64,000 bases of DNA from an uncultured Alphaproteobacteria bacterium (lineage in GTDB: Bacteria; Pseudomonadota; Alphaproteobacteria; UBA6615). The stretch spans positions 57,408-121,407 of the forward strand of contig CALSML010000001.1 of the NCBI GenBank assembly GCA_943787445.1. Direction: 5' to 3'. Of this stretch, positions 9,708-43,889 are shown in pieces. The notes under the pieces were generated by a model. It saw nothing but the letters and a program-made list of their open reading frames with translations. It was not told the DNA's origin and did not search any database. Both the position numbers and the translations under genes were made by a program. The stretch's first letter is position 1; each line of letters begins with the position of its first letter.

Positions 9708-10109
9708 TTATGACGCAACAGGCGTTCCGGCAATGCCGCTGCGAAGATCCTTGGCGGTGAAGAAATGACAATCCTCTTCGGGTGAGATTCTCACACTGTG
9801 AACAACATTCGCCGGGATATAGATGAGCTGTCCCGGACCAACTTCGGATTCCTGTCCATCGACCGTGGCGCTCAGATTGCCTTTGAGGATGTAGATCCAC
9901 TGTTCGTTGGGATGGGTGTGGGGCAGCGATGACTGTCCGGCGGGCAAGGTCATGATGCCCACCTGGGTCAGTTCGCCCTCGACCACCGGACCAAAGGTCT
10001 CGGCGTAACCGGGCCCGGCATCCAGACCCTGCAATTTGTCGACATCAAACACGTACGCGCCATTGCCGGCCTTGTAGGCACCTTCGGTCTTGGTTTGCGT
10101 GTCAGCCAT
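9708..10109 (-). CDS. Cupin domain protein
   Basis: Two-His cupin motifs (LPHTHPNEQWIYILKG ... PANVVHSV). RBS GGAGGAAAAAATG. Confidence 0.7.
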   Translation of the reverse strand: MADTQTKTEGAYKAGNGAYVFDVDKLQGLDAGPGYAETFGPVVEGELTQVGIMTLPAGQSSLPHTHPNEQWIYILKGNLSATVDGQESEVGPGQLIYIPANVVHSVRISPEEDCHFFTAKDLRSGIAGTPVAS

Positions 10110-10356
10110 TTTTTCCTCCCTGATTTGTTGCCGGAGAATACACCGGATCACACCACAAATTCGACTCGCAACCCGCCGATGACCCAACAAAATTACCGGG
10201 AAATTCGCCGCAATTTCCGAAAAAAACACTTACAAAACACACTTTCACTATTGACGATAACCCGATTTTTAGACGTCTGTATTTGGTTCTACATGACAAT
10301 GAAAAGTATTGTTCGCCCATCTTTGCACAACCACACCTCAGCCGGCGGGAGCCAAC

Positions 10357-11055
10357 ATGAACATCCTTGCGTTGACATCGCAAAAGGGTGGATCAGGGAA
10401 AACCACCCTCGCAGGTTACCTCGCCGTTGCCGCGGAAACCGCCGGGGCGGGCCCGGTGGCGATCATCGACACCGCCCCTCAGGGCAGCCTGACCGATTGG
10501 TGGAATGAGCGACACGCCAAGACACCCTCCTTTCTCAGCGCCTCGATCGCGACGCTTGCCGACGATCTGGAGCGCGCACGCAATCTCGGGTTCAGGCTCG
10601 TGATCATCGACACCCCGCCGGCCATCACCGATATGATCGATGGCCGCACGGTGATGGAACTGCCCCGCGCCGAACGTTCCTCCGATGAAGTCTCCCGGCT
10701 GTGGGCGTATCTGCAGGGCCGGGTCCACTGCGGTTGCTCCCCCGCAACTGCCGTTCTAGTCGTGTGTGGAGTAACCAGAAGAGCCATGCGTGAACCCAAT
10801 CCAGAACGTGATCCCATGCCCCGCCCGGCCCCCGCAGCCTCGCTGGCGACGATCACCATCCACCGCCCGATCACGGAGACGCCGCCCGCACCCGCGAAAG
10901 AGCCCGACGGTCTTCTGTCCGAACCAGCGCCGGTGGCGCTGGTGCCAACTAATGATGACAGCCCGGTGCCCGCTCGCCGGCAGCTGACACGGCCCCAGGC
11001 CTTTCCCGCCGCTCAGCGCGTACCCATCCCGATCGATGCCATGACCGTCGACTGA
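10357..11055 (+). CDS. ParA/MinD-like ATPase N-terminal domain with non-ParA Pro-rich C-terminal tail (possibly degenerate)
   Basis: Walker A LTSQKGGSGKTT, IDTAPQGSLTDW, and Walker B-like LVIIDTPP. After about residue 120, similarity to ParA is lost and a low-complexity Pro/Ala-rich tail follows. No parB is adjacent. Confidence 0.5.
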   Translation: MNILALTSQKGGSGKTTLAGYLAVAAETAGAGPVAIIDTAPQGSLTDWWNERHAKTPSFLSASIATLADDLERARNLGFRLVIIDTPPAITDMIDGRTVMELPRAERSSDEVSRLWAYLQGRVHCGCSPATAVLVVCGVTRRAMREPNPERDPMPRPAPAASLATITIHRPITETPPAPAKEPDGLLSEPAPVALVPTNDDSPVPARRQLTRPQAFPAAQRVPIPIDAMTVD

Positions 11056-11346
11056 ATCGACGCACTGGGGCGCGAGGTGGTGGTAACCGAAAGTCCGGTA
11101 CACGAAACCGATGCGGTACCCACGGGCAGCGGGCCCATCACCTGTGGTGTGATTGTGCTGCCTTTCGGCCCGCGTGACGGCGTCGATCACGTTCTGTGTC
11201 ACCTCTACCGGGTCGATGAAACCATGCTGGAAGGGGACGCCGAGGTGGAACTGCGTATGCCGCCGCGCGATCGAACCGGGATCAAGCGCCTGTTTGGCCG
11301 CTGATCCGGCTTGCGCCCGGCGCGCTTCGCACGGACGGGCAAGGAC

Positions 11347-12120
11347 CTATCTGGAAAAGACCCTCTGCAGAAGGTCCGTGGTCCGCTTCGCCGGGTTCTC
11401 ACGGATCGCCTTCTCTTCCTCGGCCAGATAGAGAAAGATTCCCTGCAATCCCAGTTCGAGCACATGGTTCGACAGGTCTGCCTTCACATCGGGCACGAAA
11501 GGTATGTTCTTATATCGACTGATCGCCGCGCCATAGGAACGCACAGCCCCGACTTCCGCCAGGCTCTGATCCACGATCGGACGCATCCGGGTTTTCAGAT
11601 CCGGAGTCATGGTGCGTTCGAAGAACCGCGTGGCGGCATCATCAGGTCCGTTGTGAATCTCACGGACGTCATTCAGGGTCATCTGATCCACCGCGTTCCA
11701 GAATACGGCTCGGGCTTCGGGGGCTGCGGCTTCGGCCGCCCGGTTCAGCTTGAGCTCCAGGTCACCCATCATGCCCGACAGCCCCACCCGCGAGAGTGTG
11801 CTCTGCACGGTCGCAAGACTTTTCGGCAGGGGCAGATGAATCCGCGGATCGCCATTATATCCGTCCACCGTGCCGACCTGTCCGACAACCCGCTGCGCCC
11901 CGACCTTCAGCGCCTCGCGCAATCCCGCCCCGATATCGGCATCGCTCAGCCCGCGCGCGGGTGAGGATTGTGACGATCCAGCGCCGGGAATCTGACGCAA
12001 CAGCTCACCGCCGCGCTTGAAGAAATCGGATTGCGCGAGCGCGGTATGCGATGTCGCAACCAGTGTCACAGCTGCCATTAAAACCATCAGCGCCTTGCGC
12101 CGGGTGCGTGTTTTCTGCAC
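11347..12120 (-). CDS. DUF4197 family periplasmic protein
   Basis: Signal peptide (MQKTRTRRKALMVLMAAVTLVATSHTALA). The C-terminal LQGIFLYLAEEEKAIRENP...TTDLLQRVF is characteristic of DUF4197. Confidence 0.65.
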   Translation of the reverse strand: MQKTRTRRKALMVLMAAVTLVATSHTALAQSDFFKRGGELLRQIPGAGSSQSSPARGLSDADIGAGLREALKVGAQRVVGQVGTVDGYNGDPRIHLPLPKSLATVQSTLSRVGLSGMMGDLELKLNRAAEAAAPEARAVFWNAVDQMTLNDVREIHNGPDDAATRFFERTMTPDLKTRMRPIVDQSLAEVGAVRSYGAAISRYKNIPFVPDVKADLSNHVLELGLQGIFLYLAEEEKAIRENPAKRTTDLLQRVFSR

Positions 12121-12234
12121 TGAACCGCTCCCGGATTTTTCGCGACCATCCTACATCACGTGCGCGCAGGCCGCATGCCCAATACATCCACAAATGCTAG
12201 ACTGCAGACATCATCCAAGCGGACACCGATTGCC

Positions 12235-12600
12235 ATGAACAGAATTGCACTCCTCATCCTTGCCTCGCTCACCGGACTAGGCGCGGCATATTCCATCTGG
12301 CTCCATCTGGGTGCCGACGACGCCACGACCACCGGGACACTGGTGCGCGCGGTCGTGGCCGTGGCCGTCATCGGGGCAACCCTGATCACCTGGGAAGCGG
12401 TCTTCAGGGCACCCCCGGCACGGGTCCAGCGCCTGAAACGCACGGCCCTGCTCATCCTCGTCATCGGCATTCTCGGCGTCGGCATCAATGCCTTTGTCGG
12501 CAGCCAGACAAAAAACCCCGACGGGCCCGTCTTCGTTTTGTCCCTGCTGCTCATCCTGCAGGCCTTTCTGACCATCGCCCATGCCAGTCGTGCCGAGTGA
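12235..12600 (+). CDS. Hypothetical small membrane protein
   Basis: Four hydrophobic helices. No recognised motif. Confidence 0.4.
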   Translation: MNRIALLILASLTGLGAAYSIWLHLGADDATTTGTLVRAVVAVAVIGATLITWEAVFRAPPARVQRLKRTALLILVIGILGVGINAFVGSQTKNPDGPVFVLSLLLILQAFLTIAHASRAE

Positions 12601-13952: not shown

Positions 13953-14462
13953 ATGGGTAGCGAAGGCTCGGGCGTGGGCAACGCCGATATCGATATTGGA
14001 ACATTCTGGAACGCGGTGGGTCAGCGGGCTGTGGGCGCGACCATCGTGACCGCGCGCGGCAGCGCCGGTCCGGCTGGATTTCTGGGCCTTTCAGCCACCC
14101 ATGTCTGCGCCGATCCACCCACCATGCTGGTCTCCATCGATGCGAAGACCTCCGCGCTCGGCGCCATTCGGGATTCACGACATTTCGCGATCAACTATCT
14201 GCCCCGCGGCACGGAGGACGTGGTCGACCTGTTCTCCGGCAAACGTGACATCAAGGGGCCCGCCCGTTTCGAGACGGGCCTGTGGGGCTATCTCGCGACC
14301 GGGGCGCCGGTCTTCAACGGCGCTGTCGGCGTGATGGACTGCATTCTGGAAGAAACCCTCGAGCGGCACGGGACCATCCTTGCGCTCGGCCGCGTGGTCG
14401 CCATCTCCGGTGACCGGGATGCGGACCCGCTGGTGTATTTCCGGGGTGGGTTTCTGGACTGA
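13953..14462 (+). CDS. Flavin reductase family protein (FMN-binding split barrel), probable reductase partner of the adjacent LLM monooxygenase
   Basis: FWNAVGQRAVGATIVTA...LSATHVCADPPTMLVSI...NYLPRGTEDVVDLFSG is typical of the HpaC/flavin reductase-like domain. Confidence 0.8.
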   Translation: MGSEGSGVGNADIDIGTFWNAVGQRAVGATIVTARGSAGPAGFLGLSATHVCADPPTMLVSIDAKTSALGAIRDSRHFAINYLPRGTEDVVDLFSGKRDIKGPARFETGLWGYLATGAPVFNGAVGVMDCILEETLERHGTILALGRVVAISGDRDADPLVYFRGGFLD

Positions 14463-14471
14463 CCTGAAACG

Positions 14472-15821
14472 CTACTCGGCTGCCTGATCGCGCTTCGCCG
14501 CAAAGAACTGGTTCCCCGGGCGGGGCAGCCCAAGATTTTCCCGCAGGGTCTTGCCTTCATATTCGCGGCGCAGCAGCCCGCGACGCTGAAGTTCGGGTAC
14601 CACCCGATCGACGAACAGATCCAGCCCTTCGGGCAGAAACGGGAACATGATCGTGAAACCGTCACTGGCGCGGCTGTCGATCCATTCTTCCATTTCACCG
14701 GCAATGGTTTCGGCCGTCCCGACCAGTGCAAGCCCGGAATAGCCCCCCATGCGCTGGGCCAGCTCCCGCACGGTCAGATTCTCCTGTTCGGCCATGCGGA
14801 TCGCCCGTTCACGCCCACTCTTCGAGGCATTACTCTCGGGAATACCGGGCAAAGGGCCATCGAGATCGAATTTCGATGCATCCGTGCCCAGCTGAATCGA
14901 CAGGGATGCAATTGCACTATCCAGATGCACTTTGGAATCCAGCACAGCGCGTTTCTCCCGCGCTTCCGCGACGGTATCGCCGACCACAACAAGGCAGGCG
15001 GGCATAATTTTCAGATGCTCCGGATCCCGTCCAAGCGCTGTCATCCGCCCCTTCACATCCGCATAGAAGGCACGACCATCCTCGAGCGTGCGTTGGGCTG
15101 CAAAAATTGCATCGGCAGTTTCCGCCGCGAGTTGTCGCCCCGCCTCGGACCCGCCGGCCTGAACAATCAGGGGCCAGCCCTGCACGGGCCGTGCGATATG
15201 CAACGGGCCACGCACGGAAAAATACTCGCCCTTGTGGTCCAAGGTGTGGAGTTTCTCAGGATCAAAGAAAACCCCGGAGTCCACGTCGCGGATAAAGGCA
15301 TCATCCGCCCAGCTATCCCACAGGCCGGTCACCACATCGTAAAACTCCCGCGCACGCCGGTACCGGTCAGCATGATCGAGATGCTCGTCCAGACCGAAAT
15401 TCTTCGCTGCGTCCGGGTTCGAAGTTGTGACGATGTTCCAGCCGGCGCGCCCCTCCGAAATATGATCGAGAGAGGCAAACCGCCGCGCCACATGAAACGG
15501 ATCATCGAAAGAGGTTGATCCTGTGGCAATCAGGCCCAGTTTTTCCGTGGCCATGGACAGCGCCGACAACAGCGTGAAGGGTTCGAAGGATGTTGCCGTC
15601 GCACTGCGCTTGAGCGCATCCATCGGCATATTCAGCAAGGCAAGGTGATCGGCCATGAAAAAGGCATCAAACCGCGCAGCCTCAAGCCGCTGGGCAAACT
15701 TCACGATGGCCCGGAAGTTGAAATTCGCATCGGGCGTGCCCCCGGGGTAGCGCCAGGCCCCGGTGTGAATGCTGATCGGTCGCATGAATGCCGCAAGATG
15801 AAGCTGTAGTGAAGCCATCAT
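14472..15821 (-). CDS. LLM-class flavin-dependent monooxygenase, NtaA/SnaA/DszA/SoxA family
   Basis: N-terminal LHLAAFMRP...HTGAWRYPGG, and a length of about 449 aa that is typical of NtaA/DszA. Confidence 0.8.
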   Translation of the reverse strand: MMASLQLHLAAFMRPISIHTGAWRYPGGTPDANFNFRAIVKFAQRLEAARFDAFFMADHLALLNMPMDALKRSATATSFEPFTLLSALSMATEKLGLIATGSTSFDDPFHVARRFASLDHISEGRAGWNIVTTSNPDAAKNFGLDEHLDHADRYRRAREFYDVVTGLWDSWADDAFIRDVDSGVFFDPEKLHTLDHKGEYFSVRGPLHIARPVQGWPLIVQAGGSEAGRQLAAETADAIFAAQRTLEDGRAFYADVKGRMTALGRDPEHLKIMPACLVVVGDTVAEAREKRAVLDSKVHLDSAIASLSIQLGTDASKFDLDGPLPGIPESNASKSGRERAIRMAEQENLTVRELAQRMGGYSGLALVGTAETIAGEMEEWIDSRASDGFTIMFPFLPEGLDLFVDRVVPELQRRGLLRREYEGKTLRENLGLPRPGNQFFAAKRDQAAE

Positions 15822-15878: not shown

Positions 15879-18194
15879 TCAACCCAGAGGTCCGAAATCC
15901 GGCGGCGACACCCGCCGATGGGAGACCGCTTCATAGGCCGAAGCAATTCGCAGCAAGCTGTCTTCCGTGCCCGGCTCGGAACGGAACACCAGTGAGAACG
16001 GCAGTCCCGGCGCTGCCAATGGAGTGGGTTCACGCGACGGCGCGGAGACATACTTCGTCCCGTCTTCACTCAATTTGTGGACGGGGTCATACGCCGTCGA
16101 GACATAGCCGGCCGGAACCAGAATCTCCGTCAGCCCTGCATTCGGGCCATAAAGGCTCTCGGGGCGAAGATTGTTGGATGTGTCGTGCTGCAAAGGTCCA
16201 CCGATGATTCCCGGAGGCCAGGGGCTGTGCAGGCGCACGAAGGCGTCAAGATTGTTCTCGATCAACACCATCATATCCACGCGGCGCAGCAACTCGCGCA
16301 GCATGATCCGCTCATTCACGCCCTGCCGCCCATCCAGCGCATTGCGCGGATCATCGGTCTCTTCCCAGTTCTTGAAGGCCGAACGCTGATCATCACCCCA
16401 GAACTTCGAACGCGCATTGAGCATGGCCCAGTTGTCGAGCGCCTCATGAAAACCGGCCGCTTTCCAGTCTTCGGCCCGCCGCATCAGATACTGGCTGATG
16501 TGGAAACGGAAGGTGGTGGCGAGTTCCTGATGCTGAATGGTCGCAATATCGAAATTGGCCGGCGGTTCGATGGTCCCCTCGGCTAGCGCAACACAGTAGT
16601 CGATGGAATCCATCGTGCCCTTGCCGAAGGTCTTGCCCGGCTGGAACTCCGTCGGGCGAATGGCTTCCTCGAATTCCTTGAACAGGGGTGTCCCGTCCGG
16701 CGCCAGCCGAAAGAGAACATCAGGCATGAAGACCGGCAGAAGCTTTGCGAGCGCCCGCCGGAAATCCGGCTTCAACTGTTCCAGATTCGGATCCGGCGTC
16801 CAGAGCAGATCGCCGGACTCGACCAGTGTGGCAGCCAGCTGCCCGCCCAGAACATCCTTGATCTCGGCGGTAGCGGCATCAACGATGGGTTTCTCGGTGA
16901 GGGAATCCTTCGGATAGACCATCGATTCCCGCACCACACCCAGACGAATGCCCTTGAGAGCGCCTGTCGAGGCATCCCTGGACAGATGCGAGGCATAGGA
17001 CGTGTCGAGAACGGAAGAGCGCGGCACCGTCGTATAGGGATCGCGCGGATCGTAATAGCCGTTCTCGGGATCCTTGAGCGCATCGAGAATCTTCGCGCAA
17101 TCAGGCAGCGAACGGCCATGAATGCCCGACCGGTCGCAATAGATATCCGCACCAATAGCGCCGCCATCAAACCCGAGCATCGATTTGTGAGGCAGGATCA
17201 ACGCCACCGAATTGTGGTTGGAGGGCCCCCGACAGGACGCCCGGGTCTCCTCACCCAGACTCGCCATCACCAGATTGGTGCTGACCGAAAGCGCCGAACC
17301 GGAACTCGATCCCAACGAGGCCGCGCGGGTGGTGTCATAGGGGTTGGACGGATTGCCGCCCCAGGTGGCCCGCTGATAGCCCAGTGTCGACGGCAGGACC
17401 TTGTCGGGATGGTTGCGTCCGCCGGGATCGCCAGCCCGGCCGTTATATTCGGTGTTCACGGCCTTGGCGAAAATGATCGCGCCCTTCTTGCGCAACTGAT
17501 CAACCAGAACATGATCCCGCGCAGGGAAATCATTGTCATAGGCCGCATCCGCACCGCCGGTGGACCGCATGTCCATGGTGTCGAAGGGGTCCTTGAAGGA
17601 GAAGGTGACCCCGTACATCGGCAAGGCTTCCAGATCGGGCGCGGTGCCATATTCTGCATCCAGTTCCGCCGCCCGTTCCAGCGCATCCGGGAACTGACGG
17701 AACATTTCGCAGACCGGCGGTGCGCCGGCGGGCAGCGGTCCTTCAGACGGGTGCTTATCGAATTCCCCCCAGCAGGTCACCGAACGTTCGCCACGAATGT
17801 TGAGGGTGGACAGGGCATTGACCTGCCCGGCCTTGGGGATACCCGCGATCATGCCGAACTGTTGTTCGACATCCGGTTTGGACGCTGTCGCCTCCATGCG
17901 ACCGTATTCCAGTGGCGGGCCCTTGTACTTGTCCAGATCAGGCAAAACGTCCGAAACGGGAATGGTCTCGGTCGGGAATTTCAGCGGCGCACCGGCGCGC
18001 ACAACCCCAGTGGATTCGGGAACCGGCTTGCCGTCCTCGGTCACCAGCATGCTGGACACGCCGTTATAGGCCCGGGCCCGGTCGATATATTGCTGCACCA
18101 CAGTCACCAGCGTGGTCTTTCCGGCGCGGATGGCCGTGTGCAGGTCGTCGATCGAAGCCTCGACGACGTCAAATTTGTCCGAATCCGTTCCCAT
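15879..18194 (-). CDS. Amidase signature (AS) family protein, unusually long (~770 aa)
   Basis: Core lysine (FSFKDPFD) and the LGSSSGSALSV Ser-cisSer motif. There is an N-terminal insertion of about 120 aa and a long C-terminal extension relative to typical 450-500 aa amidases. Confidence 0.75.
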   Translation of the reverse strand: MGTDSDKFDVVEASIDDLHTAIRAGKTTLVTVVQQYIDRARAYNGVSSMLVTEDGKPVPESTGVVRAGAPLKFPTETIPVSDVLPDLDKYKGPPLEYGRMEATASKPDVEQQFGMIAGIPKAGQVNALSTLNIRGERSVTCWGEFDKHPSEGPLPAGAPPVCEMFRQFPDALERAAELDAEYGTAPDLEALPMYGVTFSFKDPFDTMDMRSTGGADAAYDNDFPARDHVLVDQLRKKGAIIFAKAVNTEYNGRAGDPGGRNHPDKVLPSTLGYQRATWGGNPSNPYDTTRAASLGSSSGSALSVSTNLVMASLGEETRASCRGPSNHNSVALILPHKSMLGFDGGAIGADIYCDRSGIHGRSLPDCAKILDALKDPENGYYDPRDPYTTVPRSSVLDTSYASHLSRDASTGALKGIRLGVVRESMVYPKDSLTEKPIVDAATAEIKDVLGGQLAATLVESGDLLWTPDPNLEQLKPDFRRALAKLLPVFMPDVLFRLAPDGTPLFKEFEEAIRPTEFQPGKTFGKGTMDSIDYCVALAEGTIEPPANFDIATIQHQELATTFRFHISQYLMRRAEDWKAAGFHEALDNWAMLNARSKFWGDDQRSAFKNWEETDDPRNALDGRQGVNERIMLRELLRRVDMMVLIENNLDAFVRLHSPWPPGIIGGPLQHDTSNNLRPESLYGPNAGLTEILVPAGYVSTAYDPVHKLSEDGTKYVSAPSREPTPLAAPGLPFSLVFRSEPGTEDSLLRIASAYEAVSHRRVSPPDFGPLG

Positions 18195-18277
18195 GACATC
18201 CCCCAATTTTGATTTGAACCGATGATGTCTGGACCGGGGCAAAAAATCCAGTCATGCGGGATGCATTTGCCGCTTTA

Positions 18278-18745
18278 TCAGGCCTTGGCAAGCGCCTGAT
18301 CGAGATCACCGATGATGTCATCAGCATGCTCGATGCCGATCGACAGCCGCACATAACCCGGGGTCACGCCGGCCTGCAGCAGCTCATCGGCCTGCATCTG
18401 ACTGTGGGTGGTCGAAGCCGGATGGATTGCCAGCGAACGCGCATCACCGATATTAGCCACGTGATACAGCAGCACCAGAGCATCGATGTTCAGGATCGAG
18501 AACATCGAGGCCGACTGACCTGACGACAGACCCAGCGCGGCCACGCCACCCTCGATCGCGGCAAGGCGCTGCTCGAGCACATCAACCGTCGGGTTCATGA
18601 TCCGGGTGTAGATGTTCCCCAGCTCTGCCAGTGCAAACAGGTTTCCCGCATGCTCGGTATCGCGGAACTGATAGCTCGTCGTCTGATGGATCGGTACAGC
18701 AACGGACCCCGTGGTCGGGTCAGCGCGATGGCCGGCATGGGTACG
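18278..18745 (-). pseudogene. Remnant of an O-acetylhomoserine sulfhydrylase / Cys-Met PLP enzyme (metY-like) with large internal deletion
   Basis: One ~150 aa ORF joins an N-terminal segment ([26 protein letters not shown]...[24 protein letters not shown]) directly to a C-terminal segment ([15 protein letters not shown]...[27 protein letters not shown]) of a ~430 aa protein family. The PLP-lysine core is missing. Confidence 0.7.
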
Positions 18746-18746
18746 G

Positions 18747-19394
18747 TCAGTCAGGCGTGATCGGCAGCGCGCAACCAACGACGGAATCGCGGGTGATCAG
18801 CGCGGCGAGTTCGTCTTCACTCAGACCTTCGGTCCCGGCAGGACGCATGGGCATGATCACGTAACGCAGATCCGCATTGCTGTCGTGGACCGCAATATCG
18901 ACGGAGTCCGGAATCTCAACACCGAACTCGCGCAACACCTTGCGCGGCTCGCGCACCGCCCGTGAACGATAGGCCTTGCTGACATAGAAGGCCGGCGGTT
19001 CGCCAAGCAAGGAGCGCGGATAACAGGAGCACAATGTGCACACGACCATATTGTGTCGCTCGGGCGTGTTCTCGATGGTGACCAGCGCTGCTTCGGTGGC
19101 TTCGATCCCCAGTTCCGCAGCGGCCGCCTTGGTGTCGGTCAGCATGCGTTCCTTGTAGGCGGGATCGACCCAGGCCCGGGCGATCATCCGGGCGGCCTGA
19201 TGTGGACTGCCGCGCTCGTTGAATTCCATGCGCGCGCGAATTTCATCCGCGGTCATGACCCCCTGTTCGATGAGCAGGCTCTTCAGCGCGAGAAAGCGCG
19301 CCTCCCCCTCGGTGAGTTCAAGGTCATCATCCTCGCGGGTGGGCGCGTGGTCGTCATGATCGTGATCATGATTGTGGTCGTCATTGTGCATCAT
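18747..19394 (-). CDS. scnC: Nitrile hydratase alpha-like / thiocyanate hydrolase gamma-like subunit (Co-type CTLCSC motif) with His/Asp-rich N-terminus
   Basis: [15 protein letters not shown] is the NHase-family metal-binding motif, and the Thr marks it as the cobalt type. The N-terminus is [30 protein letters not shown]. The ATGA overlap with the upstream gene indicates translational coupling. Confidence 0.75.
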
Positions 19395-19696
19395 GCGTCC
19401 TCCCCGGCTGGAGCCAGCCAATGGTCATAGATTTCGATTTCCAGGACGTCCCCCGGGGCGCCGTCATAGTCGGGCCAGATATCATCCTGGCGGAACTGCA
19501 CCCGATAGAGCGGGATCGGCGGCAACCCCCAGCGGCCATAGGCCTTGTCCTCGGGATTCTCGAACATACCGCAGAAACGCTCGATGGTGCCGGTCTTATG
19601 ACGAATATAAGTGGGGGTGCGCACATGGCCCGGCTTGCCGATATCGAGGATACGCACCCGGTCACCCACGCGATAGTTCGCGGCTGGCTCAGACAT
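19391..19696 (-). CDS. scnA: NHase beta C-terminal-half homolog (thiocyanate hydrolase alpha-like subunit)
   Basis: YRVGDRVRILD...HVRTPTYIRHKTGTIERF...LYRVQF...VLEIEIYDHWL matches the C-terminal domain of NHase beta subunits. Its start overlaps the stop of the upstream gene (ATGTCTGA). Confidence 0.7.
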   Translation of the reverse strand: MSEPAANYRVGDRVRILDIGKPGHVRTPTYIRHKTGTIERFCGMFENPEDKAYGRWGLPPIPLYRVQFRQDDIWPDYDGAPGDVLEIEIYDHWLAPAGEDA

Positions 19697-20006
19697 GGTC
19701 CCGTGTCCCCGCCGCCAGAATTTCCTGTGCGCGCTTGTCGAAGGCATCAGCGTCCACCACGCCCTTTTCGATCAGCAACCGGATCATCCCGTCAAGGCGC
19801 CGACCGTAAAAGGTCGAGTTGGCGTAATAATCCGCCGGCATCTCCTCGACCGTCCGTCGGAACTCATCGGTGACGACCACACCCTTCACCTGCAACAAAT
19901 TGAAGGCAGCAATCATCTGCTTTTCCCAGAACAGCTGGTCGCGGTCTTCCTGGGGTACGGCCCCGGCCGGTTCACCGCCAATATCGGTTACGAGCTTGTC
20001 CACCAT
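19689..20006 (-). CDS. scnB: NHase beta N-terminal-half homolog (thiocyanate hydrolase beta-like subunit)
   Basis: DIGGEPAGAVPQEDRDQLFWEKQMIAAFNLL...TDEFRRTVEEMPADYYANSTFYGRRLDGMIRLLIEKGV matches the N-terminal domain of NHase beta. Confidence 0.7.
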   Translation of the reverse strand: MVDKLVTDIGGEPAGAVPQEDRDQLFWEKQMIAAFNLLQVKGVVVTDEFRRTVEEMPADYYANSTFYGRRLDGMIRLLIEKGVVDADAFDKRAQEILAAGTRDHV

Positions 20007-20039
20007 GGGTTCGTCCTGCTTGTGGTTTCGTTCGTGCGT

Positions 20040-20285
20040 TCAAAGACGTCGGTACAGTTTCACCGCGGAATAGAGCGCCGCCAGAGTCGCCACGAAAAAA
20101 CCGCCAAACAATGGGGTGGGCGGCACATCCCAGGCGAATTGTCGGGCGAGATCATAAACGACGTAAATCGAAAATGTCAGCGCCAGCCCAAGCATGAAGG
20201 TCTTGCCGCGCAGCGCAATCGCCAGAAAGATTCCCGCAACCACGACCTCGAGTGCGATGGAGACGAATTGAAGGTTTTCGATCAT
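20040..20285 (-). CDS. Small two-TM membrane protein, first gene of the NHase-like operon
   Basis: 81 aa with two hydrophobic helices, 34 nt upstream of scnB-like on the same strand. Confidence 0.4.
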   Translation of the reverse strand: MIENLQFVSIALEVVVAGIFLAIALRGKTFMLGLALTFSIYVVYDLARQFAWDVPPTPLFGGFFVATLAALYSAVKLYRRL

Positions 20286-21875: not shown

Positions 21876-22559
21876 CTAGGCGGCTTCGGCCGCCGCGCTG
21901 GCCCGGGCGTTCAAATCCTCGAAATCGTCCGGCCAGTTATCGGCCAGCCAGCGCAGATAGGTTTTCATATTCGCCGGGTCGATCTGCAGCGAGTTCTTGA
22001 TCTTGTCGACTTCGGGCTGCGCCTCGATGGTCAGCTTGAGGGAGTCGTTGAAGCGGTTGATCATGTTGAACATGCTGCAGATCAGCGTGAGTTCGACAAT
22101 CTCCCCCTCGTTGAACTGTGCCTGCACCCGCTCATAAACATCATCACGCGTCGCCGCGGTGTTCCTGGTCATGTGCTCGGCCCATTCGATGGCCGCGCGC
22201 TCGCGGTCATCGAAGAGGTCCGATGTCATGTAGTCGTCGGAGGACATCGCGATCACCTGTTCATGGGTGATCCCGGCGGCCGCCCCCAACGCCGTGTTGT
22301 GGGCGAAGCAGTATTCGCAGCCATTGATATGGCTGGTCTTGATGATAACCATTTCCTTGATCTTGCCCGAGAGGCGCACACCGGGCCATTCGCGCTGGTT
22401 GCCCGCCTGAAAGGGCAGAAACAGCATCGCCAGATAGGGCGCATGGGCCATGGTGCGATAGGCGTTCGGCACCCGGCCGATCATGCTGGTAACCGCGCCG
22501 AAGAAATCCTGCAGTTCCTCGGGGGCATTTTCCGGATTGATGACGGGTATTCTTGCCAC
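21876..22559 (-). CDS. Carboxymuconolactone decarboxylase family protein (AhpD-like). GTG start.
   Basis: RIPVINPENAPEE N-terminus and the HINGCEYCFAHNT motif, which is the AhpD-like CxxC/His region. Confidence 0.7.
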   Translation of the reverse strand: MARIPVINPENAPEELQDFFGAVTSMIGRVPNAYRTMAHAPYLAMLFLPFQAGNQREWPGVRLSGKIKEMVIIKTSHINGCEYCFAHNTALGAAAGITHEQVIAMSSDDYMTSDLFDDRERAAIEWAEHMTRNTAATRDDVYERVQAQFNEGEIVELTLICSMFNMINRFNDSLKLTIEAQPEVDKIKNSLQIDPANMKTYLRWLADNWPDDFEDLNARASAAAEAA

Positions 22560-22608
22560 GATGTTCTCTCCCCTTTTTCTGATTGTCCGGCGATCGGGTC
22601 GTGCGCCC

Positions 22609-23709
22609 CTAGAGCGCGCGCGCGTAGGTTGCCAGCTTGTCTTCGTCGACCTCCACACCCAGCCCGGGCCCGTCCGGCGTCGAGACATGACCGCCGACCA
22701 CGGCGATCGGATTGCGAACCACATCGGTGGCCAGATAGGGGGTGGTCGGGCTGACCCCCCAGGCCAGTGTCCGCGCGGGAAGCGGCCAGATGCAGCACCG
22801 CCGCGCTGGACACGCTGGTCTCCGCCGTCTTGCCGGCCAGGTTCACATTCATGCCCAGTTCGGCGAAGAGCTTTGTCGCCTCATGAGCCCGGGTGACGCC
22901 GCCCAGCTTGATCATCTTGACGCTGCCCCCCTGGGCCGCCCCCATCGCGTGATGACGACGCACGTCATCGAAACTGTGCAGGCCTTCATCGGCAGCAATC
23001 GGACAGGATGATTCCCCGGCGATCATCGCCATGCCTTCCACGTCATGCCCGTGAAGCGGCTGTTCGAGAAAATCGAGAACCGCACTGGCCCCCCGCGCGA
23101 ACGACACCGCTTCATCCCTGTTCCAGCCCTGATTGGTGTCCGATGACAGCTGGACCGCCCCGGCCAGCGCGTCGCCGATCGCATTGGTGCGTTCGATATC
23201 CTGATCCACGGGTTTGCCGCCGACCTTGATCTTCATGGCCGCATAGCCTTCGTCAGCGCCTTCGCGCGCATCCCCGACATCGGTCGCCAGATCGCCGGTC
23301 GCCAGCATCTTGACCACCGGCATGCGCGCACGCTGCACGCCGCCCAGCAGCTCGGCGACAGACATTTTCCGGGCCTTGCCGGCAAGATCATAAAGCGCGA
23401 TCTCAAGCACCGTCTTGGCGCTGGCATTACCATAGAGGCGCCAGTCCATTTCCTTCTTGTTGTCCATGAAGTCCGCCGGATCACGCCCCGTCAGGAACGG
23501 CGTCAGATAGCGGATCGCCGCGACCATGCTTTCGACCGTCTCCCCGGTCATCGCCGGTGAGGACGAGGCCTCGCCCCAGCCGACCAGCCCCGTATCGGTC
23601 TCGATCCGGGCAAACACATTCTCGGAGACCGAGATTTCGACCCCCGACATCTTAAACGGCCGCAGAAGCGGCAGATCGGCAATGATGGGGTCAATCCTGA
23701 TGATTTTCA
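22609..23709 (-). CDS. Mandelate racemase/muconate lactonizing enzyme (enolase superfamily) protein. Frameshifted near the C-terminus at a C6/G6 homopolymer (pseudogene or sequencing error).
   Basis: MKIIRIDPII...KIKVGG...LHLAAS is MR/MLE. After ...RADTGLG the reading frame becomes junk. The -1 frame gives a typical MLE C-terminus (GVSPTTPYLATDVVRNPIAVVGGHVSTPDGPGLGVEVDEDKLATYARAL*) ending near 22609. Confidence 0.75.
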
Positions 23710-23780
23710 TGGTGCGGAATTCCTGCTCACCCAATTCGCGTGTACTTCTACAATAAGGGGAAACCCGGCGGATGCCAGCC

Positions 23781-24812
23781 TCAAGCCGTTGCGCGCCGGG
23801 GAATGCCGCCAATCGTGACCCAGTGGTAGCGTTCATCGAGCAACGGCGAAAGTGGCCGTCGCACGTCATCCTCGAGCGCGATCCACAAACGCAGCAGCAG
23901 TCGTTTGCGGGCCGGTTCGTCCCAATCCTCGAACGGAGAGCGGCCATGAAGGGTCGTGTGGTTGTTGATGAACTGCATGTCGCCCGGCTCAAAGGTCATC
24001 GACAACCGCATCTCGGGACGTTCCGCCACCGAATGGGCGAATTCGAGCGCCGCCCATTGCGTGGGGCTGGGTGCCAGCTCTTCGCCATGGCGGGTGGTCG
24101 ACCGCACGAAGAACCGGTTGGTGAACCGCGACGTGATTTTGCCCGACGCGACGGAGAACATCGGCACCTGATACCAGGGCTTCTGTCCATCCGGCTCATC
24201 GCCGCGCCAGTCCACATTGATGGGTTCGTAGAGATGCGGGAGCAAATCCGGACGCTCCGCGCGAATGACATTGTGCATGGCCAACGCGCTAACGATATGG
24301 CTCTCGCCGCCCATCCGGGCATCGTTGACACAGAACAGGCCGAGGATATCGGCGGGCAACTGGTCGCAGTGGAACTGCAGCGCACCCGCCGTCTTGTACC
24401 CGCGCACATTGGCGTCATCCATCACGCCACCCTCATCCTGCACATAGCCGATCAGGTCGCCGCGCAGGCTCTGGGAGATCGACCGGCCCAGATGAGCGCC
24501 GATGCCCCAATAGATGAGTTCGCATTCCTCTGTCGTGTAGCGATCCCGGGGCAAGCCGCGCAGCAGCGCGACGCCGTATCCGTGACAAACCATGTCGCGA
24601 AGATGGGCCAGTCGGGCGCGCAGATGGTCGAGCGGAAAATCCGCCGTTGCAAACGGAACCTGCACGCCCCGCGACATCGCAACGTTCAGCGCGCCATCGA
24701 TCTCCGCGATATCCGAGTCATCAAGGTGGATGATCCAGTCATCCACAAGCTGCAGATTCCGGCCCAGCCAGACATCCGGTCCGTCCAGGTGATCCGTCAC
24801 CATATCGATCAT
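23781..24812 (-). CDS. TauD/TfdA family Fe(II)/2-oxoglutarate-dependent dioxygenase
   Basis: Length, the QFHCDQ...H region and overall TauD-like pattern. It is the first gene of the same-strand operon with the MLE, CMD and ALDH genes. Confidence 0.65.
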   Translation of the reverse strand: MIDMVTDHLDGPDVWLGRNLQLVDDWIIHLDDSDIAEIDGALNVAMSRGVQVPFATADFPLDHLRARLAHLRDMVCHGYGVALLRGLPRDRYTTEECELIYWGIGAHLGRSISQSLRGDLIGYVQDEGGVMDDANVRGYKTAGALQFHCDQLPADILGLFCVNDARMGGESHIVSALAMHNVIRAERPDLLPHLYEPINVDWRGDEPDGQKPWYQVPMFSVASGKITSRFTNRFFVRSTTRHGEELAPSPTQWAALEFAHSVAERPEMRLSMTFEPGDMQFINNHTTLHGRSPFEDWDEPARKRLLLRLWIALEDDVRRPLSPLLDERYHWVTIGGIPRRATA

Positions 24813-26617: not shown

Positions 26618-26693
26618 TGGTGCCGCCTGCAGGATTCGAACCTGCGACCCCCGCATTACGAATGCGATGCTCTACCAACTGAGCTAAGGCGGC
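26618..26693 (-). tRNA. tRNA-Thr (anticodon CGT), 76 nt including encoded CCA
   Basis: Reverse complement GCCGCCTTAGCTCAGTTGGTAGAGCATCGCATTCGTAATGCGGGGGTCGCAGGTTCGAATCCTGCAGGCGGCACCA folds as a cloverleaf. The acceptor is GCCGCCT/AGGCGGC, the anticodon loop is TTCGTAA, and the T-arm is GCAGG-TTCGAAT-CCTGC. Confidence 0.9.
26636..26662. repeat. Left copy of 27-bp perfect direct repeat TCGAACCTGCGACCCCCGCATTACGAA (inside tRNA-Thr, anticodon stem to T-loop). Putative att core.
   Basis: Exact match to 31133..31159. Confidence 0.8.
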
Positions 26694-27111
26694 GCCGATT
26701 TGCGAGGCCTTACCTATGTAAGGCCGTCGATTGGGTCAAGCGATTTGCGTGTCGGCCGGACTGAAGTTGCCCAAAGCCTTATTCACCAACATTTCCCGGT
26801 CGGAATTGCCGTCAGAGACCATAGCGATTTAAGGGTCAAATTTTTGGTTTTTTCTGCTTGTTCCACATCCTTGGTTGATGTTGATCCCCGTATTATACGC
26901 TCACCCGAATCCGATGTGAATCGACTAGTCAGTGGAACAGGATTGGAACAAGGGTTTTAGGGTCAGGAGAAAATTGTCGCTGTGACACGGTTCCATCTCA
27001 GGACGTCACGACAACCCCCACCCCGGAGGGACAAAAATCGACCCCCTGCCGAATATATATATTGGAAGATGGCCCGGATAAATTTTAGGCCAGAGTAACC
27101 AGAGTTCCCGT

Positions 27112-27756
27112 TTAGTGCCTCAGGCTCTCACACGCGACACCGTCACGATCACCATCAAGTCGATGAGGATCACCGGGCTTGGCTGCCTCGAAGAAGCTCT
27201 GAGCTTCTTGCCACGTCTGAAAATCTCCACAGTCTTTGTCGCGAGGCATTTGGCCCGGTTTGGAATTTCCTCGCCTACCTCGCCGCCATTGCTCTGGAGC
27301 GACAAAACTTCCTGACCAAATGCCGAGTCCTGATTTCTGTGCTTCCATCTCTTCGATGACGTAGTCGGTCGAGTAGCGCCGGTAGGCTATCGCCCAACCG
27401 GTAGCAACCATCTCGCGGTTAAGTTCAACTCCGAGCGGTCCCCCTATCGAGCAGACAGCAATAATTCGACCGTAACGATCTTTGTCGATCTCTGAGCAAT
27501 CGACCCAATGGTTCTCAACCAAGGCAGCCAGAGCAGCTGTTGCCTCGAAACCACAACGCCAATCCTGACCATTGCGCGAACAAACTTGATCGCTCTCAGG
27601 CGCATCAATTCCGTGAAGGCGAACAGCGACCGAACCAAATTTGAGGGAGTCTCCGTCCACGACACGCGGTTTGCCGCTGATGGCCTCAGCGCCTTGAACG
27701 CCAATAGCGATCACGCTGATTGCAGTCGCGCAAAATAGTTTGAAAAGGTGAACCAT
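27112..27756 (-). CDS. Secreted thermonuclease (staphylococcal nuclease-like) with C-terminal Excalibur calcium-binding domain
   Basis: Signal peptide. RVVDGDSLKF...VRLHGIDAPE...DRYGRIIAVC...GWAIAYRRY is SNase-like. The C-terminal DKDCGDFQTWQEAQSFFEAAKPGDPHRLDGDRDGVACESL is an Excalibur motif. Confidence 0.8.
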   Translation of the reverse strand: MVHLFKLFCATAISVIAIGVQGAEAISGKPRVVDGDSLKFGSVAVRLHGIDAPESDQVCSRNGQDWRCGFEATAALAALVENHWVDCSEIDKDRYGRIIAVCSIGGPLGVELNREMVATGWAIAYRRYSTDYVIEEMEAQKSGLGIWSGSFVAPEQWRRGRRGNSKPGQMPRDKDCGDFQTWQEAQSFFEAAKPGDPHRLDGDRDGVACESLRH

Positions 27757-27797
27757 GGCTTTCAGGGACTCATCGTTCTGACCGACCCGACGTCCTA

Positions 27798-28103
27798 TCA
27801 GTCACTCTTCGTACAGTGGCTTTGCCACAACGTCGATAGCTGGGTCATCTCGGTCAGCGCAGCCCTGTAACGCTGGTCCATAATGTCGTAATGAGTTTGC
27901 AAATCCTCATTTGCAACATTGGGCTGACGCATATCGCGCATCAGAGAAATTAAGACGGTCATATGCGATGAGGTTTTCCGCATCTGCGACGCCAACGTCG
28001 GGCACATCTGCGGGTCGATAAGAGGTACCTCGTCACTTGCAGATGATCTCCCTCCCATGAGCAGCAGTCCCGAAACGCAGAGGGTGGAAATTAAGAGCCT
28101 CAT
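27798..28103 (-). CDS. Hypothetical secreted small protein
   Basis: N-terminal signal peptide MRLLISTLCVSGLLLMGG. No recognised motif. Located within the island, upstream on the same strand as the nuclease. Confidence 0.4.
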   Translation of the reverse strand: MRLLISTLCVSGLLLMGGRSSASDEVPLIDPQMCPTLASQMRKTSSHMTVLISLMRDMRQPNVANEDLQTHYDIMDQRYRAALTEMTQLSTLWQSHCTKSD

Positions 28104-28359
28104 AACAAATTCCTATTAGATGAATCCTTCTACTTTATAGACGACAACCAGAGACCTCTCAGCTGGGCCCAGGAGAGCCATACAAAGGCTTTGTGACTGT
28201 ATCTAAGGAAGGTAACTGACGAAAGACCAGACCTCTTACAGAGCTATAATTTTGCCTATTTATCCCAGCGTTTCCAGTGCTTTGCGGGTATTCTCTCCAG
28301 AATACGAAAAGGCCCCCGGAGATTTGTCTCACGAGGGCCTGATCATATTTCTTATAGGG

Positions 28360-28674
28360 TTAACCTGCAGCGGTATACGCACTTGCTGCTGCTTGAGCCG
28401 CCGAAACTACTTTCGGCATATCAATTTCCTCGAGGTAGTCAGCCTCTTCGAAAGCACCACTCGCCTTAATTGCAAGAACAAGACCCATCGCCGTTTCATG
28501 GTCTTTGACCTCTACGCGGACAACGACGTCGTATTTCCCTCGAACGAAGGCGATGTAGTCAGATGTGCCACCAACCGCATCCATCAGTTTTTTGATCGCA
28601 GCTTCTCGATCTGAGCCACCAATCAGACCCTTCAGCGCATGCGGGGCATATTTTCCTAGAAGTAATGCTTTCAT
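28360..28674 (-). CDS. GYD domain-containing protein
   Basis: About 104 aa, MKALLLGKY...GGTSDYIAFVRGKYDVVVRVEV...AMGLVLAIKASGA pattern consistent with the GYD family. A probable terminator hairpin lies downstream (about 28303..28345). Confidence 0.55.
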   Translation of the reverse strand: MKALLLGKYAPHALKGLIGGSDREAAIKKLMDAVGGTSDYIAFVRGKYDVVVRVEVKDHETAMGLVLAIKASGAFEEADYLEEIDMPKVVSAAQAAASAYTAAG

Positions 28675-29151
28675 AATGTCCTCTCTGAATTATCTACCTA
28701 CGGATAACTATCTACACCTAACTCGTGAACGAAAGAGAACCTAATTTTTAACAAAGGCACTCCGTTTGAGGCTGAACGTAACGCTACAGCATCCTCAGGT
28801 CGTATGGTCGAGAAGCTGATCGACTCGTACCCAATGTCGGTCGCCTCAGGCAGCCTCGCTGTGCCTCACAATGCACTGGCAACTCTGGAGCGTCTGCAAA
28901 ATCTTGAACCTGCAAGACGGTTTGAGGTTCGTAACCCTGATCCTGATGAGATAGACCGACAGATCGCTCACTACCTTGATGTCATTGGGACTGGCCAAAA
29001 CAAAAGGCCCCCGGACAGGATGCATTTCAGTGAGCCTTAGATTGTGACCAATTCCGAACGTCACACCAAAAGTCTGTTACAGACTTATAAATATTTTGAT
29101 TTGGTTATTTTATGGAACTCCATTGGGCAGGTTCCATATTGCAACTCAGCA

Positions 29152-29415
29152 TCAAGTGTTCTTGACCACCTTAATCCCCTTTCCTCCCCGACCACGAGAC
29201 TTATAAATCGTATAGCCCTTTGCGCCTAAGTTGAGTGATTCAACGCCTTCGGCCGAAGAGAGTATACTTGCAATTTTCTCTGCAACTTTATCCGACTTTT
29301 CTAACTTAGAATTGGCCTTCCGCCATTCATCAAATGCCTTTTGTCCTAATTCGTCGCCTATTGATTTCTTCAAAGCGTTTAATTTGCGAATTTCGCCTTT
29401 GGTCAAATCTGACAT
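29152..29415 (-). CDS. Hypothetical Lys-rich small protein
   Basis: 87 aa ORF with an AT-rich promoter-like region upstream. No recognised motif. Confidence 0.3.
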   Translation of the reverse strand: MSDLTKGEIRKLNALKKSIGDELGQKAFDEWRKANSKLEKSDKVAEKIASILSSAEGVESLNLGAKGYTIYKSRGRGGKGIKVVKNT

Positions 29416-29576
29416 ATCTACCTTCTAGTTGAATTTAAAAAATAAGATTATAGGACTTTTTTTGATGAGATTCAAAATAAAAATTTTGACCAACAAAGAT
29501 GTTAGTCCCATTTTGTTGGATTACTAATCATGTTTAGTTTTTTCATCAGGTATCAAACACGGGAGTCCAAAATAAT

Positions 29577-29954
29577 ATGGTTAATTCACTGACAGGAGCA
29601 CTCGCTGAGGGCGATCTAAGCCTCATAACTCTTAAGGCGCTGCTGGATAATAGCTTCGATTCAATCCTAATCACGGATTCAACCAAGGCTGGAAAAATTC
29701 TTTATACCAATAACGGTTTTAAGGTTTTGACCGGTTACTAAACAAAAGAAGTGATTGGGAAAAACTCCCGTATTTTGCAAGGCACGGCCACCGACAAAAA
29801 GGTACTGGAGCGTCTCCGCAAGGCCCTCACGGATGGAAAGCCGTTCGAAGGCCGAGCGATAAACTACAAGAAGAACGGAACTCCCTTCATCATGCATTGG
29901 CGCGTTGTCCCGGTTAAAGTCGGTCGCAATACAAAGGTATGGTTGGCGATCTAG
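29577..29954 (+). pseudogene. Short LOV-like PAS domain gene interrupted by in-frame TAA (29739..29741). The LOV cysteine is replaced by Ser (NSRILQG).
   Basis: ITDSTKAGKILYTNNGFKVLTGY-*-TKEVIGKNSRILQGTATDKKVLERLRKALTDGKPFEGRAINYKKNGTPFIMHWRVVPV parallels LOV ITD...[27 protein letters not shown]...NYRKDG. Both parts are in the same frame (29577 and 29751 both ≡ 0 mod 3). Confidence 0.6.
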
Positions 29955-30127
29955 CGAGAAGGTTCGGCAGTCAAGTAGTCTTGGCGTCGCCGGTTCAAAA
30001 ATGACCTTCAAAAGTTTGTCATTAAGCTAACCCAGCATTCGGGCAAGGTCTTCCGGTCTCAGCTGGACGTACCGCTGAAGCATCCTGAGGTCCTTGTGGC
30101 CGGTTATCGCTGCCACCTCCATCACGC

Positions 30128-31012: not shown

Positions 31013-31132
31013 AGGAGTGGTACAAGCAAATACCCCTATACATTTTCCATCTGTCGGCGAACGGGGGTCGCCGGGAAAAATGCTTAGAAATCAAAACTTA
31101 ATGGCTGAGAAAGTGCATTTGGTCTGCGTGAC

Positions 31133-31159
31133 TCGAACCTGCGACCCCCGCATTACGAA
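31133..31159. repeat. Right copy of the 27-bp direct repeat. It lies within a degenerate tRNA-Thr-like remnant (about 31120..31196). Putative attR.
   Basis: Exact 27/27 match. The flanks (tggtctgcgtgac ... gacagtgctcta ... gaagcactaggaagcc) align imperfectly with the tRNA 3' and 5' parts. Confidence 0.75.
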
Positions 31160-31259
31160 GACAGTGCTCTAAAAAAAGAAGCACTAGGAAGCCTATGCTG
31201 TTTTTCACATAACCTACTGAACAATCGAGAGAATCATATCCTGTCCGTCGTCATATAAA

Positions 31260-43327: not shown

Positions 43328-43347
43328 GACTTATCCTCGCGGCGGCT

Positions 43348-43797: not shown

Positions 43798-43811
43798 GGA
43801 ATTCCTCTTTA

Positions 43812-43852
43812 AGTAATCAGCGAATTCGAAAAAAAACACGCCCCGCCTAATA
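43812..43852 (-). terminator. Intra-operon rho-independent terminator/attenuator between tctC and tctB
   Basis: Hairpin cacgccccg-cctaatacttga-cggggcgtg followed on the minus strand by the T-run TTTTTTTTCGAATTC. Confidence 0.7.
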
Positions 43853-43889
43853 CTTGACGGGGCGTGATTAAAATTGCCGTTGGTCTAGT

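Follow-up and report, generated by a model that had tools for sequence, protein, structure and literature searches.

The canonical cobalt-type nitrile hydratases (Co-NHases), those of P. putida (3QXE), P. thermophila (1IRE), and R. rhodochrous J1, contain one fused beta subunit of ~220–230 aa and are accompanied by a dedicated activator. The thiocyanate hydrolase (SCNase) of T. thioparus (ScnABC, PDB 2DD4) is a three-subunit member of the same family and has an activator gene; the gene order of SCNase is given as betaN-like, betaC-like, and alpha-like, where betaN and betaC are the N- and C-terminal halves of the beta subunit. In ToyJKL of Streptomyces rimosus the gene of the alpha subunit comes first. 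As cited in PMC7329996, ToyJKL is an activator-less three-subunit nitrile hydratase (NHase) whose alpha subunit alone is catalytically competent. The NHase of S. canus CGMCC 13662 (ScNHase) has the gene order anhD-anhE-anhA and no activator; AnhD (betaN) acts as a metal and subunit-swapping chaperone, and cobalt is inserted without an activator (PMC7329996). The three-subunit enzyme of S. canus hydrates neutral neonicotinoid nitriles (PMC7329996; PMC13243292). Activator-less three-subunit NHases are already known from these two systems (S. canus AnhD-AnhE-AnhA and ToyJKL). In our study, a 64,000-nucleotide stretch of an uncultured alphaproteobacterium (contig CALSML010000001.1, positions 57,408–121,407; the whole stretch is called the window) was found to contain the genes of betaN, betaC, and alpha of such a split-beta enzyme. 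Most likely it is a self-maturing Co-type NHase that belongs to a distinct clade, has a pocket suited to anions, and supplies an amidase with its product.

A first-pass annotation of the window had described a three-subunit, split-beta enzyme of the NHase family, and this description was borne out by the open reading frames (ORFs), the Pfam matches, and the conservation. The genes of betaN, betaC, and alpha, together with that of an 81-aa protein upstream, are tightly packed and all four are on the minus strand. Both gene junctions were found in the raw sequence as they had been described. The start of betaC overlaps the stop of betaN (ATGTCTGA), which couples the translation of the two halves; the length of 101 aa of betaC is counted from the ATG within the betaN stop region. 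The three-gene feature is far beyond chance. The alpha subunit contains a His/Asp-rich N-terminus, which begins with MMHNDDHN, and a claw motif spanning residues 117–127 (C119-T-L-C122-S-C124-Y-P-R127); judged from its residues, this Thr-type claw is of the cobalt type. The betaN subunit ends with the conserved GTRDHV motif, and its R50 matches the canonical beta Arg52. The betaC subunit contains the GHVR-P-Y-R-K-G motif, the R26 of which probably corresponds to the canonical beta Arg157. Both beta arginines were invariant across the clade. In NHases, beta Arg52 and beta Arg157 hydrogen-bond the oxidised claw cysteines. The genes scanned in the window (~6.3–36 kb, small ORFs partly scanned) included no carbonic anhydrase or sox gene and none for a cobalt transporter or an accessory protein of NHase, in agreement with the earlier statement that no activator or cobalt transporter is adjacent and only the 81-aa protein is. 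The betaN subunit did not match the activator model TIGR03889, and no activator of the TIGR03889 type was present among the scanned window genes. In a promoter and terminator scan between 14 and 25.2 kb, the counts were at background level.

The split of the beta subunit was found to be old and fixed. All 112 relatives of betaN with at least 54% identity were stand-alone proteins, nearly all of 105–106 aa apart from a few gene calls that were truncated or longer, and 124 of the best 150 betaC-matching cluster representatives (50% identity) were not longer than 150 aa. The order betaN-betaC-alpha was kept in ~50 independent loci from genomes and metagenomes, one of which (L032) belongs to the cultured Faunimonas sp. 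B44 (GCA_052655945.1). The betaC start overlapped the betaN stop by 8, 11, or 14 nt in 33 of 34 dereplicated loci, and the betaC start codon sits inside the codons of the conserved betaN C-terminal motif TRDH(V). The gap between betaC and alpha ranged from −19 to +43 nt in the relatives, with −4 and −1 being the commonest. The split persisted down to ~63% alpha and ~52% betaN identity, across unrelated genomic contexts. The clade is alphaproteobacterial and widespread, and was found in marine and soil metagenomes. On the NCBIfam beta model TIGR03888, betaN scored 45.1 bits (model positions 4–103) and betaC 67.0 bits (positions 135–226), neither reaching the cut-off of 152.2. The model was thus matched on both sides of the linker of the fused beta (~30 residues, ~103–135), which is therefore absent and not frame-shifted. 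No homopolymer was found in the raw sequence at the junction of betaN and betaC. In the first-pass annotation, a recent frameshift of one beta gene, visible as a homopolymer indel at the junction, had been named as a finding that would undermine a SCNase-like reading. A frameshift of this kind, or an error of assembly, would make the enzyme a pseudogene or an artefact. Decayed genes do occur nearby (the rest of a metY gene and an MR/MLE gene with a probable frameshift), but the split, the order, and the stop/start overlap are conserved in ~50 loci of independent assemblies and in a cultured strain, and these conservation data refute a frameshift or an assembly error, to which we give almost no probability. 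The gene structure is genuine and ancient and is maintained by selection. The betaN end G-T-R-D-H-V (codons within 19689–19706, minus strand) was nearly invariant across the clade, and its codons contain the betaC start; this conservation may serve either the function of the protein or the translational coupling.

For a comparison of the substrate pocket, the sequences were aligned without gaps, starting at the conserved beta Arg. The window betaN contains F66-Y67-G68-R69-R70, whereas canonical Co-NHases contain Y68-Y69-E-H/R-W72; F66 stands at the position of Tyr68 and R70 at that of Trp72 in the alignments to canonical beta. The equivalent motif is Y-Y-E-R-W in the split enzymes of Streptomyces and Agrobacterium and Y-Y-G-R-W in the beta subunit of T. 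thioparus SCNase. The substitutions in the pocket of the window clade were beta Tyr68 to Phe, beta Trp72 to Arg, and alpha Trp116 to Arg, with an extra Arg at beta 71. Among 39 betaN sequences, R50, R51, Y67, R69, and R70 were invariant and F66 was conserved in at least 90%. Since F66, R69, R70, and alpha R127 were invariant or nearly so at ~63% alpha and ~52% betaN identity, selection appears to act on a specific pocket. The replacement of three aromatic pocket residues suggests that the substrate is a small, polar, probably carboxylate-bearing nitrile. It has been reported that Y68 and W72 are residues of the substrate-binding pocket whose mutation inverts the regioselectivity, and that the beta Tyr (beta Tyr72 of the Fe-type) is among three strictly conserved candidate bases (PMC7193024). 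A fused-beta NHase of Acidobacteriota (L020, 6615–7274) was found to contain YYEQRL, and an Arg at the Trp72 position is thus not unique to the split clade.

The Arg127 of the window alpha aligned with gamma-Arg136 of SCNase (residue 136 of 2dd4_C) and with alpha-Trp116 of the P. thermophila NHase. The structure PDB 3VYH (3vyh_A) is the P. thermophila NHase engineered as W116R and reads CSCYPRPVLG. In the sampled loci, CSCYPR was present in every split-beta locus with a readable claw and CSCYPW in every fused-beta locus. The operon on a plasmid of Streptomyces sp. NBC_01176 (L082, with the layout betaN-betaC-nthA-aquaporin-HoxN) contained CSCYPR, and that on the plasmid pR76 of Agrobacterium pusense also carried Arg after the claw. 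Because this Arg is present in the split NHases of Streptomyces and Agrobacterium, by sequence it is neither specific to SCNase nor diagnostic of it. Dedicated searches found no literature on the role of gamma-Arg136 or on Trp72/Tyr68. The Agrobacterium pusense pR76 locus (L081, 3552–6945) showed a permuted split, with betaC, alpha, and betaN followed by aquaporin, DUF302, CbtB, and CbtA genes; PGAP named both beta halves 'SH3-like domain-containing protein', though the second is the N-terminal half. On a plasmid of Azospirillum ramasamyi (L080, 5039–7763), a model-passing scnC was found after a fused beta-like protein of 283 aa and before HupE/UreJ, with flanking IS elements. The SCNase family is thus not always split into three subunits, and the split beta, which had been taken as a hallmark of SCNase, is not one.

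In the family placement, the three proteins were found to be slightly closer to solved Co-type NHases than to the SCNase of T. thioparus. Against solved structures, alpha scored 185–198 bits with Co-type NHases and 176 with T. thioparus SCNase; betaN scored 31 and 23.5 bits, respectively. For betaC, the best match was the beta subunit of the P. putida Co-NHase (58.7 bits), followed by SCNase alpha (49.8). The alpha subunit was ~50% identical to the solved Co-NHase alphas. On the SCNase-gamma equivalog model TIGR03887 it scored 200.9 bits against a cut-off of 291.45 and failed by ~90 bits. For calibration, scnC of the Azospirillum ramasamyi plasmid scored 356.8 bits on TIGR03887 and 211.3 on the NHase-alpha model, its product being close to chain C of 2DD4 (351 bits). 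The window alpha was the least SCNase-like on TIGR03887 among the four Arg-type alphas tested. Across 28 clade members, 65 alpha residues were invariant, and G23-H24-V25-R26 of betaC was invariant within the clade. Database names for the clade proteins were only 'nitrile hydratase subunit alpha', 'nitrile hydratase', and 'hypothetical protein'. A neighbour-joining (NJ) tree was made from 33 alphas and 202 columns with 200 bootstraps, the support being counted by bipartitions. The alphas with Arg after the claw were separated from those with Trp after the claw in 95% of the bootstraps, and the window clade was monophyletic in 100%. The window alpha thus falls outside the ordinary Trp-type Co-NHase alphas; a place among ordinary Co-NHase alphas had been named earlier as a finding that would count against a SCNase-like reading. 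The Arg-type group consisted of the window clade, L002, the Agrobacterium and Streptomyces plasmid enzymes, and scnC. Within this group the bootstraps were split, with 45.5% joining the window clade to scnC and 42% joining scnC to the other split enzymes; a window clade inside the group of L002, Streptomyces, and Agrobacterium received 1% support.

The comparison with S. canus was made through the operon of the same layout of Streptomyces sp. NBC_01176. Like the ScNHase type, the window has the betaN-betaC-alpha order, the beta split at the same place, and no activator gene. With the Streptomyces operon it shares the CSCYPR claw, the 'RR' after the conserved beta Arg, and a betaC of 53% identity, including the ..LYRV..WPDYDG..GDVLE.EIY.HWL.P block, whereas the identity drops to 36% for betaN and 48% for alpha. 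The Streptomyces enzyme keeps the canonical YYERW and is followed by aquaporin and the HoxN cobalt transporter, whereas the window clade has FYGRR and lacks both genes. In the first-pass annotation the order betaN-betaC-alpha had also been read as the mark of SCNase, but it is likewise that of the characterised NHase of S. canus, anhD-anhE-anhA (PMC7329996). The canonical Co-NHases gave the best matches for all three proteins and have the same claw, both beta arginines, and a His-rich alpha N-terminus, but differ in the Trp after the claw and the Y68/W72 pocket as well as in their fused beta and activator. The His-rich alpha N-terminus had been considered as a built-in chaperone and was dropped as a distinguishing feature, since the canonical Co-NHase alphas share it. 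The scanned genes of the window included none for deazapurine biosynthesis. On three-subunit NHases, literature searches brought up only the S. canus work and mentions of ToyJKL, and they found no report on the FYGRR pocket or on a split-beta clade of alphaproteobacteria.

The SCNase of T. thioparus resembles the window enzyme in the family, the three subunits, the Co-type claw followed by Arg136, and an alpha-type subunit outside the Trp-type NHase alphas. The identities to the window were 40% (alpha), 26% (betaN), and 40% (betaC). The beta and alpha subunits of SCNase (157 and 126 aa) have N-terminal extensions of ~30–40 residues, which are absent from the window beta halves; betaN aligned to residues 47–130 and betaC to residues 35–124 of the respective SCNase chains. 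The window alpha lacks the C-terminal tail of SCNase gamma. SCNase contains PYYGRW in beta and LFYTR..TYTRGATG in alpha, whereas the window contains FYGRR and GHVR/TYIRHKTG, and its betaC keeps the NHase-type GH(V/T)R-P-Y-R-K-G and not the SCNase motif. SCNase has an activator gene and the window has none, and amidase neighbours recur in the window clade. SCNase had been held to be unexpected in heterotrophic alphaproteobacteria; it has, however, already been reported from alphaproteobacteria, with THI201 as the strain cited in PMC7193024, and Azospirillum has an annotated scnC. A 2023 SCNase tree enriched in Alphaproteobacteria (PMC10098168) was not used as evidence, because its hidden Markov model cut-off was loose and the SCNase and NHase alphas were not separated.

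The neighbourhoods of the relatives were scanned in 23 dereplicated loci, with 139 neighbour proteins within 4.5 kb. TctC, which is the periplasmic receptor component in tripartite tricarboxylate transporters, was the commonest neighbour family (7), followed by an amidase and an ABC permease family (4 each). TctC, in some loci with TctB or TctA, flanked the operon in L024, L030, L032, L052, and L086. Downstream on the same strand, hydrolases were found in several unrelated forms. A long amidase (~790 aa) was present downstream of alpha in L001, L033, and L035, past a GST-like and a metY gene, and directly after alpha in the distant L058 and L059 (~10 bp in L059), with 70% identity. An AtzE-family amidase (above cut-off) and an HpxZ/AtzH-like protein were present downstream in L052, L075, and L087, of which L087 additionally contained a 72-aa ORF and an SDF dicarboxylate symporter. 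A CN_hydrolase was found ~30 bp past alpha in L022, L023, and L086. No carbonic anhydrase, sox, cobalt transporter, or accessory protein was found among the 25 commonest neighbour families (at least two members each). AtzE-type amidases act on carboxylated amides, and an enzyme which makes amides, especially carboxylated ones, fits these neighbours.

The features of the window locus are listed in Table 1. The long amidase of the window, whose closest solved relatives are peptide amidase and Tse8, probably performs the next step, from the amide to the acid and NH3. In comparison with L001, L033, and L035, the window is missing 880 bp, with the GST-like (beta-etherase-like) gene and the 5' end of metY, and 788 bp from the interior of metY; through these losses alpha now lies ~0.5 kb from the amidase. 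The metY remnant is outside the enzyme. A related contig of 786 kb (L083) is ordered in the same way, with genes for the 81-aa protein, a GST-like protein, MetY, the amidase, the monooxygenase of the NtaA/DmoA family, and the flavin reductase; here (10001–12400) the GST-like gene follows the 81-aa gene after 10 bp and the NHase genes are absent. The NHase cassette of 1.27 kb is thus a presence/absence polymorphism between the 81-aa and the GST-like genes, and the 81-aa protein belongs, as the first gene, to the backbone operon and not to the cassette. The 81-aa protein had zero Pfam or NCBIfam family matches and only 18 relatives, all hypothetical; it preceded betaN in the marine subclade alone. 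A role in the enzyme or in the carriage of cobalt had been considered for it; as a cassette component it was rejected, because in L083 it precedes the GST-MetY-amidase genes without NHase genes. The monooxygenase and the flavin reductase were conserved beside the long amidase in L035 and L083. The backbone (metY, GST-like, DmoA-like monooxygenase, and an upstream TauD-family gene) could be read as sulfur scavenging.

Table 1. Features of the split-beta hydratase locus and of its neighbours in the window.
Feature	Position	Strand	Basis or remark
81-aa two-TM protein	20285..20040	−	Upstream of betaN; program-made ORF
betaN, 105 aa, stand-alone N-terminal half of NHase beta	20006..19689	−	PF21006 NHase_beta_N, 9.6e-14
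Codons for the betaN F66-Y67-G68-R69-R70 pocket motif	19797..19811	−	Alignment to canonical beta
betaN stop/betaC start overlap ATGTCTGA	19696..19689	−	Raw sequence, CAT GTC TGA / ATG TCT GAG
betaC, 101 aa, stand-alone C-terminal (SH3-like) half of NHase beta	19696..19391	−	PF02211 NHase_beta_C, 7.3e-21
betaC stop/alpha start overlap ATGA	19394..19391	−	Raw sequence
alpha, 215 aa, catalytic metal-binding subunit	19394..18747	−	PF02979 NHase_alpha, 1.6e-75
Codons for the alpha claw CTLCSCYPR, Arg127 last	19014..19040	−	Three Cys ligands and Ser, then Arg
metY (O-acetylhomoserine sulfhydrylase) remnant	18278..18778	−	Two separate matches, N- and C-terminal model ends only
Long amidase-signature amidase, 787 aa (family ~770–787 aa)	15879..18242	−	PF01425, 9e-24
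NtaA/DmoA-family FMN-dependent monooxygenase beside divergent flavin reductase	13953–15821		553 bits, cut-off 279.7

Other parts of the window showed the following. An enolase-superfamily (MR/MLE) ORF at 22481–23992 (minus strand) matched the C-terminal domain model only to 173/219 and then continued Arg-rich, overlapping the next (CMD/AhpD-like) gene by ~240 bp; this anomaly is likely a frameshift or a sequencing error. A tRNA-Thr (CGT) gene at 26618–26693 was followed by a low-GC stretch (45–56% vs. ~61%), which contained a thermonuclease-like ORF (27112–27756), a probable integrase recognised by eye (30128–31012), and a truncated Amidohydro_2 (31260–31706). The region 26618–31706 looks like a small integrated island. 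A second low-GC stretch (47–52%) with few confident ORFs was found at 42000–46000.

The metal, the activity, the substrate class, and the maturation route of the enzyme may be proposed as follows. The enzyme would be an alpha/betaN/betaC heterotrimer unit, in which alpha would bind a non-corrin Co(III) via C119, C122, S123, and C124, with the cysteines oxidised post-translationally as in the family. The R50 of betaN and the R26 of betaC would hydrogen-bond the oxidised cysteines. The C-N triple bond of the bound nitrile, of the kind suggested by the pocket, would be hydrated to the amide, and a neighbouring amidase, here the one of 787 aa, would hydrolyse this amide. As there is no activator gene, maturation would probably be autonomous or aided by the betaN subunit, in the way reported for the three-subunit enzyme of S. 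canus. Several observations weigh against this proposal. On the curated NHase-alpha model TIGR01323, the alpha subunit scored 245.2 bits, just below the cut-off of 249.85, and the alpha tree was made without an Fe-type outgroup, ToyJ, and the S. canus sequences. The change of beta Tyr68 to Phe could mean an altered or reduced nitrile chemistry. The neighbourhoods were heterogeneous across the loci, and as TctC is very numerous in some alphaproteobacteria, its presence in 7 of 23 may be partly due to chance. The backbone exists without the NHase genes in L083, so that the adjacency of the amidase in the window lineage is weak evidence of coupling.

The first-pass annotation had described an architecture of the SCNase kind, with thiocyanate or an unusual nitrile as the possible substrate. 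As a thiocyanate hydrolase or a small-pseudohalide enzyme, the protein would convert SCN- to thiocarbamate and then to COS and NH3, supplying nitrogen and sulfur. The three-subunit layout in the scnB-scnA-scnC order, the Arg127 equal to gamma-Arg136, and the position of alpha and scnC outside the Trp-type alphas, with the window clade as the direct sister of scnC in nearly half of the bootstraps, stood in favour of this reading, and a pocket rich in Arg would be favourable to a small anion. The operon of close relatives holds metY, a GST-like gene, and the NtaA/DmoA-family monooxygenase and could be one of sulfur assimilation; such a backbone keeps the thiocyanate idea alive at a low probability. 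The part that did not stand was the membership in SCNase itself, which was not supported by the tests: the gamma model is failed widely where a genuine scnC passes it, the identity of alpha to T. thioparus gamma is low, and neither the extensions of SCNase nor its YYGRW and FYTR..TYTRGATG motifs are seen in the beta halves, where betaC keeps the NHase-type motif. The Arg is shared with the split NHases of Streptomyces and Agrobacterium. The amide hydrolases which recur downstream speak against SCNase, because the route from SCN- to COS and NH3 needs no amidase, and neither carbonic anhydrase nor sox accompanies the genes among the recurrent neighbour families shown or near the window genes scanned. 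The hydratase genes of the window have stayed intact although metY has decayed and the GST-like gene has been lost. We therefore consider a SCNase, and with it the turnover of SCN- or OCN-, improbable.

The enzyme could also be an ordinary broad-spectrum NHase for aliphatic and aromatic nitriles with a split beta, in which the Arg changes and the neighbours would be uninformative on the substrate. The identity of alpha to the industrial Co-NHases (~50%), the hydration of neutral neonicotinoid nitriles by the related S. canus enzyme, the heterogeneous genomic contexts, and the Arg at the Trp72 position of the fused-beta L020 are consistent with it. However, the near-invariance of F66, R69, R70, and R127 at the divergence given above and the carboxylate transporters and AtzE-type amidases that recur beside the operon argue against it, and we hold such an enzyme to be rather unlikely, though less so than a SCNase. 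The self-maturing Co-type NHase with an anion-friendly pocket is thus preferred as the probable reading. In a stronger and more doubtful form, which we put forward only tentatively, the clade would be an anion-directed hydratase and a new, activator-free specificity class of the NHase family, acting on a natural nitrile not recognised as a nutrient and feeding AtzE/HpxZ-type or long amidases. The candidate substrates may include cyano-carboxylates (for example cyanoacetate, beta-cyanoalanine, and the cyanohydrins of 2-oxoacids), N-cyano compounds, which would give ureido acids, and pseudohalides (for example cyanate and thiocyanate).

The NHases are major industrial catalysts, the use of which is limited by the substrate range and by the dependence on an activator. 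The clade described here is activator-free and naturally split, and its pocket is changed at the positions used by engineers (beta 68, beta 72, and alpha 116). It could be a source of enzymes that act on polar or anionic nitriles and would put the need for the 'strictly conserved' beta Tyr to the test. Split-beta NHase operons should not be annotated as SCNase from the architecture or the Arg136 position alone. The abundance of the clade in the sea and the soil, beside amidases and carboxylate transporters, points to an unrecognised natural pool of nitriles as a source of nitrogen.

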